A stretch of DNA of 64,000 nucleotides, taken from a virus (taxonomy: Duplodnaviria; Caudoviricetes). The stretch lies in IMG/VR virus record IMGVR_UViG_3300042866_001263. One strand, 5' to 3'. The stretch's first letter is position 1, and each line of letters opens with the position of its first letter. Of this stretch, positions 61,627 to 64,000 are shown piece after piece. A program made the translations under genes and the position numbers. Under the pieces are notes generated by a model. The model was not told where the DNA came from and did no database searches. It saw only the letters and a program-made list of their open reading frames with translations.

Positions 61627-61965
61627 ATGAAGGTACAGTCAGCAAAAGCAAAGGGTCGTCGTCTTCAACAGTGGGTCAGAGAAAAACTGATTGAGATGCT
61701 TGAGGTTCACCCAGAAGATATTGAAAGTAGATCTATGGGTGCTGGTGGTGAGGATCTCATCATGGCTCGTGCTGCCAGATCAAAGTTTCCTCATAGCATT
61801 GAGTGTAAAAATGTGGAGAAGCTAAATATCTGGGATGCCTATGAGCAGGCATCGGCCAACTGCGGTGACTATGAACCTCTCGTTGTTATTAAAAAGAATG
61901 GTAAAAAACCATTGGCAGTTATAGACGCAGAGTATTTCATTAGTTTATTCGGAGACAAAAAATGA
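61627..61965 (+). CDS. PD-(D/E)xK nuclease, Holliday-junction-resolvase-like
   Basis: KAKGRRLQ...GEDL...IECKN. Confidence 0.7.
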   Translation: MKVQSAKAKGRRLQQWVREKLIEMLEVHPEDIESRSMGAGGEDLIMARAARSKFPHSIECKNVEKLNIWDAYEQASANCGDYEPLVVIKKNGKKPLAVIDAEYFISLFGDKK

Positions 61966-62633
61966 CGTTAGATCTTCATAACTTTTTTAAGTATTATGAT
62001 GATGGTAATTCAAACCATGTGGCGGCAGTTCAGTGGTTAGAAGATAACCTTCCTGCTAACTTTATGGATGACGCAGAGACAGAATGGATTGGTATTTTCA
62101 GAACGAAACCACCTACTCCAGCAGTTCTTGACGTTCCATATTTCAACCAAGTAGATAACTACAGAGACGCACATAGAACCTGCAACAGTTCATCATGCGC
62201 TATGTGTCTTGCTTTCCTCAAGCCAGGCAGTATCAAAGGTGACGACGAGTATGTGAAGAAAGTATTTGCGATTGGTGATACAACTGACCACGCAGTTCAG
62301 ACTAAAGTTCTTGCTGGATATGGTGTGAAGTCAAGTTTTAGTTATAATCTTTCTTTTGCTGATGTTGATAAGAGCCTTGATAGAGGCAAACCTGTTGTGA
62401 TTGGCATTCTTCACCGTGGTTCTCTAACTTCTCCTACTGGTGGGCACATGTGTGTAGTCATCGGTAAGACACCTGATGGTAAAGGATACTATGTAAATGA
62501 TCCTTATGGTTCACTCAACGATAACTATACTGGTCCTGTAACGAATGGTAAGAAGACCATTTACACCAAAGCAGTTCTCAAGCATCGCTGGTGCCCAGGT
62601 GGCAACGATGGTTGGGGTCGTATTTTTGACTGA
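61962..62633 (+). CDS. C39-like cysteine peptidase with an N-terminal LHNFF domain
   Basis: LDVPYFNQ...TCNSSSCAM...GHMCVVIG...VNDPYG. Confidence 0.8.
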   Translation: MTLDLHNFFKYYDDGNSNHVAAVQWLEDNLPANFMDDAETEWIGIFRTKPPTPAVLDVPYFNQVDNYRDAHRTCNSSSCAMCLAFLKPGSIKGDDEYVKKVFAIGDTTDHAVQTKVLAGYGVKSSFSYNLSFADVDKSLDRGKPVVIGILHRGSLTSPTGGHMCVVIGKTPDGKGYYVNDPYGSLNDNYTGPVTNGKKTIYTKAVLKHRWCPGGNDGWGRIFD

Positions 62634-62651: not shown

Positions 62652-63323
62652 ATGGCTAGAATAGATTTACACAACTTCTTCAAGTTCTATGACGAGAAGA
62701 ACCCTAATCATGTAAAGGCAGTACAGTGGTTAGAAGATAACCTCCCAGTTAAGTATCTAGAAGATAACGTAGATTGGGCGGAGATCTATAGAGGAAAAAA
62801 GGGTAATGCTGCATCAGCATCTACCTCTGCTGCTGCAGCTCCCGTAGTAGGTGGTGATGATGTCCCACAAATGGGCATCAAATTGGTGAAGGAATTTGAA
62901 GGATGCAGACTAAATGCATATCCAGATCCTCTCTCAGGTGGTCTGCCAATTACTATTGGTTGGGGTTCCACTAGAAATAAGAATGGTGGAGCATTTAAGA
63001 TGGGTGATAGCATCACTCAGGCAGAAGCAGATGAGCTACTAATTGAAGAAGCAAAGCATCACTTCCTCCCAGCACTTCGTAAAATTCCTCACTGGAATGA
63101 GATGTCTGATGGTAAAAGAGGTGCTCTATTATCCTTCGCTTATAATTTGGGCGCTGGTTTCTATGGTGGTGATAATTTCAATACGATTACTCGTGTTCTA
63201 AAAAATAAAGAATGGGATAAGGTGCCAGATGCGCTTTACCTCTACAGAAATCCTGGTTCAAATGTTGAGGCAGGACTAGCACGTAGAAGAAAAGCAGAAG
63301 GAGAAGCGTGGAAGAAGGGTTGA
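62652..63323 (+). CDS. GH24 lysozyme (endolysin) with an N-terminal LHNFF domain
   Basis: EFEGCRLNAYPD...TIGWGST...ALLSFAYNLG...GLARRRKAE. Confidence 0.9.
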   Translation: MARIDLHNFFKFYDEKNPNHVKAVQWLEDNLPVKYLEDNVDWAEIYRGKKGNAASASTSAAAAPVVGGDDVPQMGIKLVKEFEGCRLNAYPDPLSGGLPITIGWGSTRNKNGGAFKMGDSITQAEADELLIEEAKHHFLPALRKIPHWNEMSDGKRGALLSFAYNLGAGFYGGDNFNTITRVLKNKEWDKVPDALYLYRNPGSNVEAGLARRRKAEGEAWKKG

Positions 63324-63348
63324 CACTCACATAAATACGTGATATTAT
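63320..63348 (+). promoter_or_regulatory. Overlapping sigma70 promoter (TTGACA-N17-TATTAT with extended TG) and late promoter core in its spacer
   Basis: TTGACA 63320-63325, TAAATA 63332-63337, TATTAT 63343-63348. Confidence 0.75.
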
Positions 63349-63402
63349 GAAGACCCACCCCTAAAAAGGTGGGTCTCACATTATGAGAAAGTGAAGTGAT
63401 AT

Positions 63403-63470
63403 TTAGAGCCGTGGAAGATGCCCATCGAGAGATGGGTGTACCCCTCTTCTATACGGATGTAGAGTTCAAT
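63403..63470 (+). ncRNA. Candidate structured cis-regulatory leader RNA
   Basis: Nested stems CCGU/ACGG, GGAAGA/UCUUCU and UGCCCAUC-GAGA-GAUGGGUG (GNRA tetraloop). Confidence 0.5.
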
Positions 63471-63478
63471 TAAATTTA

Positions 63479-64000
63479 ATGCAACAATTCTTTACTGTAG
63501 CCCTGCCCCTTCTGGCATCGGTTACAACCAATGTGGCAACACTGCCGATCTTTCCTCCTCTGACGGCGCCTCCAACGCCATTCTCTATTATCAAGGAGTT
63601 TGAAACGACAGCGACCCGAGAGGTTGCTCCCGAAAAACCAAAAGAAAAAAGGCTAATTTGTAAAGGGTGTTCAGAACATGAGAACCTTGCTTTGGATTTT
63701 TTCCAAAACCAAGGAATTAAAGACAGAAACGCCCTCGCTACTATTCTGGGCAATATTAAGCAGGAATCCATGTTCGTGCCTAATATTTGTGAAGGTGGTA
63801 GCAGGACCAGTTATCATAACTGCGGACGTGGTTATGGTCTGATCCAATGGACATCTGCCGATCGTTATTATGGATTGGGTGATTTCGCTAAGAAGTTTGG
63901 TGGTTCTCCATCAACACTTCCAACGCAACTTCGTTATCTTACGAATGAAGTTCAATGGAAACGAATTGAAGACAGGATGAAAACTCCTGGTAAATCTATC
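63479..64000 (+). CDS. Phage tail-lysozyme-like protein with signal-like N-terminus, 3'-truncated (not in ORF track)
   Basis: MQQFFTVALPLLASV...GNIKQES...GYGLIQWT...QLRYL; frame is open to the window end. Confidence 0.8.
   Translation, partial: MQQFFTVALPLLASVTTNVATLPIFPPLTAPPTPFSIIKEFETTATREVAPEKPKEKRLICKGCSEHENLALDFFQNQGIKDRNALATILGNIKQESMFVPNICEGGSRTSYHNCGRGYGLIQWTSADRYYGLGDFAKKFGGSPSTLPTQLRYLTNEVQWKRIEDRMKTPGKSI

Follow-up and report, generated by a model that had tools for sequence, protein, structure and literature searches.

A structured leader RNA, real and evolutionarily maintained, precedes cell-wall hydrolase genes of T4-like cyanophages (Kyanoviridae). It lies near the end of the window, the 64,000-nucleotide stretch of viral DNA analysed here, where 155 nt separate the end of a GH24 lysozyme gene (63323) from an open reading frame (ORF) beginning at 63479. 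Judged by its sequence and by the catalogues searched, it constitutes a new, previously uncatalogued family among the cis-acting structured mRNA leaders. The reading that we favour, and to which we give about even chances, is that the leader would work post-transcriptionally as a cis-acting 5′-UTR operator or translation-initiation element, a conserved single-stranded box docking a trans-acting factor.

Anatomy of the leader and its genomic setting

The window belongs to a T4-like cyanomyovirus of fresh water, whose nearest isolates are S-SRM01, DSL-LC02 and DSL-LC03. On the 3′ side of nrdA–nrdB it carries a RusA-like gene, a C39-like peptidase gene, the GH24 lysozyme gene and then the ORF at 63479, the product of which contains a PF18013 domain (E = 8.5e-16). 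Full-length relatives of this product comprise 200–222 aa, and genes of this type are annotated in the isolates as tail tip lysozyme, virion structural protein or DNA transfer protein. The C39-like peptidase (61962–62633) and the GH24 lysozyme (62652–63323) share an N-terminal module of ~45 aa (DLHNFFK[Y/F]YD..N.NHV.AVQWLEDNLP), behind which their catalytic domains differ; the same pair occurs in DSL-LC02 and DSL-LC03. The features of the leader and its gene are as follows.

63320–63348, plus strand: predicted sigma70-like early promoter TTGACA-17-TATTAT (11 of 12 matches, TG extension), enclosing a T4-late-type box, cATAAATA (63330–63337)
63351–63376, plus strand: hairpin 1, promoter-proximal, AGACCCACC/GGTGGGTCT (63351–63359/63368–63376; 9 bp, 8-nt loop)
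63380–63394, plus strand: conserved linear box AUUAUGAGAnnnUGA, found in 113 of 135 relatives
63403–63408, plus strand: 5′ flank UUAGAG (family consensus [U/A]G[A/U]G directly before P2)
63409–63456, plus strand: core hairpin from RNAfold and covariation, with P2 (63409–12/63453–56), P3 (63413–18/63445–50), P4 (63420–26/63431–37), a GAGA loop (63427–30) and a 3′ bulge, GUACCCC (63438–44)
63457–63471, plus strand: single-stranded conserved box AUGUAGAGUUCAAUU (15 nt; family consensus AUG-N-N-GA-N-UU-C/U-W-AUU)
63472–63478, plus strand: A/U-rich spacer (7 nt here, 6–8 nt across the family), followed by ATG 63479
63479–64000, plus strand: 5′ part of the downstream gene, from the ORF list; hydrophobic N-terminus and PF18013 Phage_lysozyme2 domain; runs off the window

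The initial annotation had described nested stems with an unpaired bulge on this gene, and RNAfold reproduces them where it had placed them, the bulge being GUACCCC. The stems read CCGU/ACGG (P2), GGAAGA/UCUUCU (P3) and GCCCAUC-GAGA-GAUGGGU (P4 with its loop, 63420–37). The 156 nt from 63345 to 63500 fold at −48.3 kcal/mol (z = −4.4), a stability reached by none of 200 shuffled sequences, and the core hairpin folded alone gives −19.9 kcal/mol. The conserved helices stop 22 nt 5′ of the AUG. In the model the spacer and the start AUG are both predicted to be open (probability of being unpaired 0.80 and 0.69, respectively), which would place the start codon at 63479 outside any sequestering structure. 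The ATG has no Shine–Dalgarno (SD) sequence, as had been remarked; this is ordinary for this phage and not distinctive, because by a crude count only 17 of the 60 plus-strand ORFs of the window have a strong one. Since SD-less starts are common in this phage, no special initiation device is demanded.

The dual sigma70/late promoter claimed for this gene is present and recurs in relatives, in an arrangement already known from cyanomyoviruses. A sigma70-type −35/−10 pair and NATAAATA occur at one site 5′ of the gene, as would befit overlapping early and late promoters; among 135 relatives the sigma70-like motif is found in 113, xTAAATA in 124 and both with a fixed offset in 109. Overlapping early and late promoters are known for S-PM2, Syn9 and RB49 and are thought to yield middle-like expression (PMC2984593). 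Hairpin 1 also exists as claimed. Its sequence is variable, it folds at −6 kcal/mol or below in all 134 relatives scored, and it is followed by a U-rich tail in 84 of the 134, the window copy being without one; it is a candidate 5′ stabiliser or a candidate terminator of the upstream lysozyme gene. In many relatives its loop repeats UUAUGAG (CCCUG-UUAUGAG-CAGGG). The linear box AUUAUGAGAnnnUGA sits between hairpin 1 and the core. Two readings of this box were rejected: a hairpin enclosing AUGAGA was found inconsistently, in only 28 of 134 relatives, and a mini-ORF (AUG AGA nnn UGA) is excluded by AUU and AUA variants.

In the long form of the window the promoter lies ~125 nt upstream, so the hairpin is internal to the leader. 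Many short marine and estuarine forms carry a late box, NTAAATA, 7–8 nt 5′ of P2; by the geometry of T4 late promoters the hairpin would therefore be 5′-terminal on the late mRNA of the short forms, and the flank [U/A]G[A/U]G would be the late transcript start in the short marine ones. In contigs L028, L108 and L115 the dual promoter is replaced by a tRNA gene directly ahead of the leader (~130 nt upstream of the box), which suggests co-transcription with the tRNAs and processing. In the L459–L461 lineage the dual promoter and a hairpin 1 with a U-tract are retained upstream of the tail-lysozyme gene; the core hairpin and the box have been lost, and the ATG directly follows the U-tract.

Members, covariation and association with hydrolase genes

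The same element was found in more than 200 T4-like cyanophage contigs and isolates, among them S-SRM01, S-PM2, DSL-LC02, DSL-LC03 and S-CRM01, each hydrolase gene having a single copy. Two exact-pattern scans of IMG/VR gave at least 120 matches each and at least 128 distinct 200-nt versions; a third, with the box variant AUGUCGAAUUCWAUU, added many further members, including short forms in which the hairpin is P2 alone or P2 with a short P3. Further members were found by BLAST in S-CREM1, S-CRM01 and S-SCSM1. A covariance model (R1) built on the long form scores 102 bits on 63400–63481, detects a single strong copy per genome in the five complete genomes tested (S-SRM01, DSL-LC02, DSL-LC03 and two from IMG/VR) and also recovers the S-PM2 copy, which stands before p160, a ‘lipoprotein precursor’. 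The box itself likewise has a single exact copy per complete phage genome.

Conservation of the structure, the point on which the initial annotation had proposed to be judged, is borne out by compensatory changes in many relatives. The S-SRM01 copy, before the orthologous gene, has identical flanks and compensatory changes in both inner stems. In alignment A3, comprising 49 diverse members and made with the model, standard pairs occupy 88% of the cells, versus 42–53% when the partners are slid; two-sided changes are seen at 16 of 21 pairs, and P3 covaries at all six of its pairs. The covariation score of 0.336 compares with 0.07–0.10 in the slid controls and was reached by none of 500 shuffles. 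As A3 was fitted to the model it favours the structure; the slid controls and a MAFFT-based RNAalifold agree with the structure. Outside the pattern-selected set P2 occurs as CCUA/UAGG (S-PM2), CCCA/UGGG (DSL-LC02 and others), CUGGG/CCCAG, CCACC/GGUGG, CUACC/GGUAG, UCACC/GGUGA and CCAGA/UCUGG. The first collections were selected by exact pattern, so that the invariance of GAGCCGUGG and UACGGAUGUAGAG in A1 and A2, like that of P2 in the pattern-selected set, is a product of that selection, a bias from which only A3 and the sets retrieved by protein escape. An outer helix suggested by RNAalifold (P1, UUA..UGU) was rejected: one of its pairs is missing from 20 of the 49 sequences, and nothing in it covaries.

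What remains constant in long and short forms is the hairpin base preceded by [U/A]G[A/U]G, the unpaired box AUGnnGAnUUC-W-AUU and the 6–8 nt A/U-rich spacer, with the AUG of the box held 21–22 nt from the start codon; the 15-nt box is kept at least as well as the neighbouring coding sequence. The hairpin interior is variable. Its 3′ bulge is of three unrelated types (GUACCCC, ACUUCUCCUU and AGUGCGCUUU), P4 is sometimes replaced by a triloop, and P3 and P4 are missing from the short forms and from L125. The latter (L125:3654–3768) is a natural deletion in which the interior (P3, P4 and the bulge) is gone (GAGCCG-CUAUACGG), with flanks, box and gene intact.

Every copy precedes a member of one of two unrelated families, encoding either PF18013 tail-lysozyme-like proteins (~200–222 aa) or RlpA/DPBB proteins (PF03330; ~118–157 aa), and all of the downstream proteins have signal-peptide, lipobox or SAR-like N-termini. 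The slot after nrdA–nrdB holds either hydrolase gene, depending on the phage, behind the same leader. When genes were retrieved by protein only, the box was in register at 55 of 65 tail-lysozyme-like and 49 of 72 RlpA-like genes, those of the latter without it including more distant and partial-length matches. Between 5 and 10 of the 65 tail-lysozyme genes are without the element, which is thus dispensable in some lineages. The earlier proposal of a cis-regulatory RNA timing a peptidoglycan hydrolase stands in so far as a conserved, covarying leader is located in cis and tied to peptidoglycan-hydrolase genes; its riboswitch character and its switch find no support, and timing through the dual promoter is plausible but amounts to the ordinary early and late overlap known from cyanomyoviruses.

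Several individual copies add to this description. One IMG/VR contig (L168) has two leaders, a short form before an RlpA-like gene (L168:4895–4954) and a long form before a tail-lysozyme-like gene (L168:6059–6143). For S-CAM7 gp244 (L162:2429–3151) the annotated coding sequence begins 33 codons 5′ of a weak leader match (E = 0.42); translation more probably starts at the UUG of L162:2528, behind which a signal-peptide-like N-terminus begins. Contig L284 (JBIPMW010000360.1), assigned to a ‘Crocinitomicaceae’ metagenome-assembled genome (MAG), codes for an RlpA-like protein that shares 88% identity with the cyanophage protein; the contig probably comes from a cyanophage and was misbinned into this Bacteroidota MAG.

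Proposed mode of action and its alternatives

In the operator reading, the functional core would be a hairpin of variable length, built up in the window into a stack of three stems that ends in a GNRA loop. This hairpin would anchor the element or cap the 5′ end, and a trans-acting factor would dock on the box; candidates are an RNA-binding protein of phage or host and the 30S subunit together with S1. The element would act after transcription, on translation initiation, mRNA stability or both, and would thereby set the amount and timing of an enzyme that endangers the host wall. Its anatomy is one typically seen in protein-bound operators or specialised initiation regions, a hairpin with an adjoining conserved single strand that abuts or overlaps the ribosome-binding region. 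Other partners of the box were sought. It pairs with 16S rRNA no better than shuffled boxes do; neither the window nor five complete phage genomes contain another copy or an antisense partner, the near matches being at chance level; and in 401 sampled cyanobacterial genomes the exact box occurs at control frequency, solely in coding or unrelated contexts such as a conserved Prochlorococcus gene. Other readings of the leader were discarded as well. The AUG of the box as a uORF start or N-terminal extension gives AUG-UAG in the window, and is in frame and open in some marine forms and out of frame in others. K-turn and sarcin–ricin readings of the flanks, made by eye, fail on GUG/GAG and UCGAA/UAGAG variants, and a tRNA-like reading of GAGUUCAAUU gains no support from ARAGORN, which found no tRNA or tmRNA.

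The contender that ranks next, which we consider unlikely, is a constitutive 5′ stabiliser combined with an SD-independent ribosome-loading site: the hairpin would protect the late mRNA from 5′-end-dependent decay and the A/U-rich box and spacer would recruit 30S and S1, with no regulator involved. The 5′-terminal hairpin expected for the short marine and estuarine forms, the predicted openness of spacer and AUG, the usual occurrence of SD-less initiation in this phage and the freedom of the hairpin interior to vary all fit this. However, neither a stabiliser nor a landing pad needs a near-invariant AUGnnGAnUUC at a fixed 21–22 nt, the limitation to two gene families and one copy per genome would go unexplained, and in the long form of the window, with its promoter ~125 nt upstream, the hairpin is not 5′-terminal unless the RNA is processed. 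Processing is the essence of a further proposal, that the leader is an RNase E or RNase III site which frees the hydrolase mRNA from upstream transcripts or tRNA precursors and gives it a defined, translatable 5′ end. An RNase E site typically has a stem-loop adjoining an AU-rich single strand, and the leader fits this context; the distant promoter of the long form, with another hairpin in between, and the promoterless copies directly after tRNA genes (L028, L108 and L115) also speak for it. Against it, the short forms have their own late box 7–8 nt before the hairpin, so that no more than a primary 5′ end is needed, sequence specificity of this degree is unusual for RNase E sites, and stems of 4–9 bp in the short forms are too short for RNase III. 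We regard this proposal as improbable.

A riboswitch, which the initial annotation thought possible, would here sense a metabolite or ion and have a ligand switch the P2–P3 fold against a UUCUAU (63447–52)/GUAGAG (63459–64) hairpin and so gate translation. Covarying stems, conserved junction nucleotides and a GNRA loop are in keeping with this, linkage to unrelated genes of related function is a classical riboswitch signature, and with no Rfam match it would be a new class. The pocket, however, is not conserved: P3, P4 and the bulge are replaceable across members, so there is no conserved ligand pocket, and neither three bulge types nor short forms with only a 4–9 bp hairpin accord with riboswitch-like character. 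The alternative helix can be paired as described but does not behave as a switch, its covariation (0.098) being at the level of shuffled controls (0.086); 59 of 500 shuffles score as high, and at three of the six positions 15–18 of ~43 sequences do not pair. There is also no terminator, no U-tract after the core and no platform sequestering an SD or AUG, and none of the 401 cyanobacterial genomes sampled has the exact box in a regulatory setting. The element is probably no metabolite sensor, and we hold the riboswitch reading to be very improbable. Least probable of all, and barely credible, is translational timing by promoter choice in the style of T4 gene e, whereby early transcripts would fold closed and late ones starting inside the structure would be translatable. 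The dual promoter is indeed conserved and the product is a murein hydrolase, but in the long form the two predicted starts, ~13 nt apart, are both upstream of all structures, the start codon is outside every conserved helix and no late box lies within the hairpin. The processing, riboswitch and promoter-choice explanations are accordingly rated below both the operator and the stabiliser or enhancer.

Relation to known systems and significance

Operators of the T4 type include the hairpin with an adjacent 3′ single strand in the gene 43 message and the RegA sites over A/U-rich initiation regions; the activator site of Mu com/mom is built comparably. The cyanophage leader resembles these sites in having a hairpin with a conserved unpaired stretch immediately 3′ of it, which reaches into the initiation region of a particular phage mRNA; it lies likewise in a T4-like phage and is plausibly bound by protein. 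It differs from all three in showing no sequence likeness to them, in having no SD within the operator and in serving two unrelated enzyme genes, and it is far more widely conserved in sequence. Autogenous control is unlikely, because the leader serves two unrelated enzyme genes. With T4 genes e and soc it shares a structured leader on a phage murein-hydrolase gene with early and late promoters; unlike them, its start codon and spacer lie outside the helices and are predicted to be open, and no late promoter lies inside the structure. A sequestering hairpin of the e/soc type is thus not what was found: the helices end before the AUG, and the late box is upstream of all structure.

Among structured RNAs of cyanophages, manA (RF01745), wcaG (RF01761) and PhotoRC-II (RF01717) are 5′-UTR motifs of T4-like cyanophages known mainly from aquatic metagenomes (Weinberg et al., 2010; PMC2864571); the present leader differs from them in sequence, fold and gene associations. 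Like the ydaO/c-di-AMP riboswitch and other leaders of NlpC/P60, LysM and rpf genes, it would be a cis-regulatory RNA before secreted peptidoglycan-remodelling enzymes. It is far smaller than ydaO, however, lacks both a pseudo-symmetric multi-helix core and a conserved pocket, and gave no Rfam match at E up to 10. The short-form hairpin, within a few nt of the predicted late transcript start, recalls the stabilising stem-loops of the ompA leader; those, however, have no sequence-specific box, and the long-form hairpin of the window is internal to a leader of ~125 nt. No described family matches the leader, as checked with the covariance models of Rfam 15: none of the 4227 models matched anywhere in the window at the gathering threshold, and with E up to 10 the region 63200–63600 gave only a minus-strand STnc630 hit of 15.4 bits, well under the cut-off of 55 and no more than noise. 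No description of the leader was found in the literature searched; the motif might be contained, unnamed, in the 2023 catalogue of viral structured RNAs (PMC10690425).

With this leader, the few structured RNAs known from cyanophages are joined by a further, well-supported family. It marks two unrelated exported wall hydrolases, with single-gene specificity, in hundreds of cyanomyoviruses of freshwater, estuarine and marine origin, and its box offers a concrete, mutable handle on the control of a dangerous enzyme. In annotation it can be used to fix true start codons and to flag hydrolase genes. To our knowledge, lysis and cell-wall remodelling by the most abundant cyanobacterial viruses of oceans and lakes are poorly understood, and we know of no holin or lysis-timing system in T4-like cyanophages. 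A bolder extension of the operator reading, which we put forward tentatively and think somewhat unlikely, is that hairpin and box form the operator of a phage-specific post-transcriptional circuit gating exported murein hydrolases, through a dedicated phage or host RNA-binding factor or through an infection-state signal sensed by the long form. If such a circuit exists, T4-like cyanophages would use RNA to control both wall remodelling and the timing of lysis.
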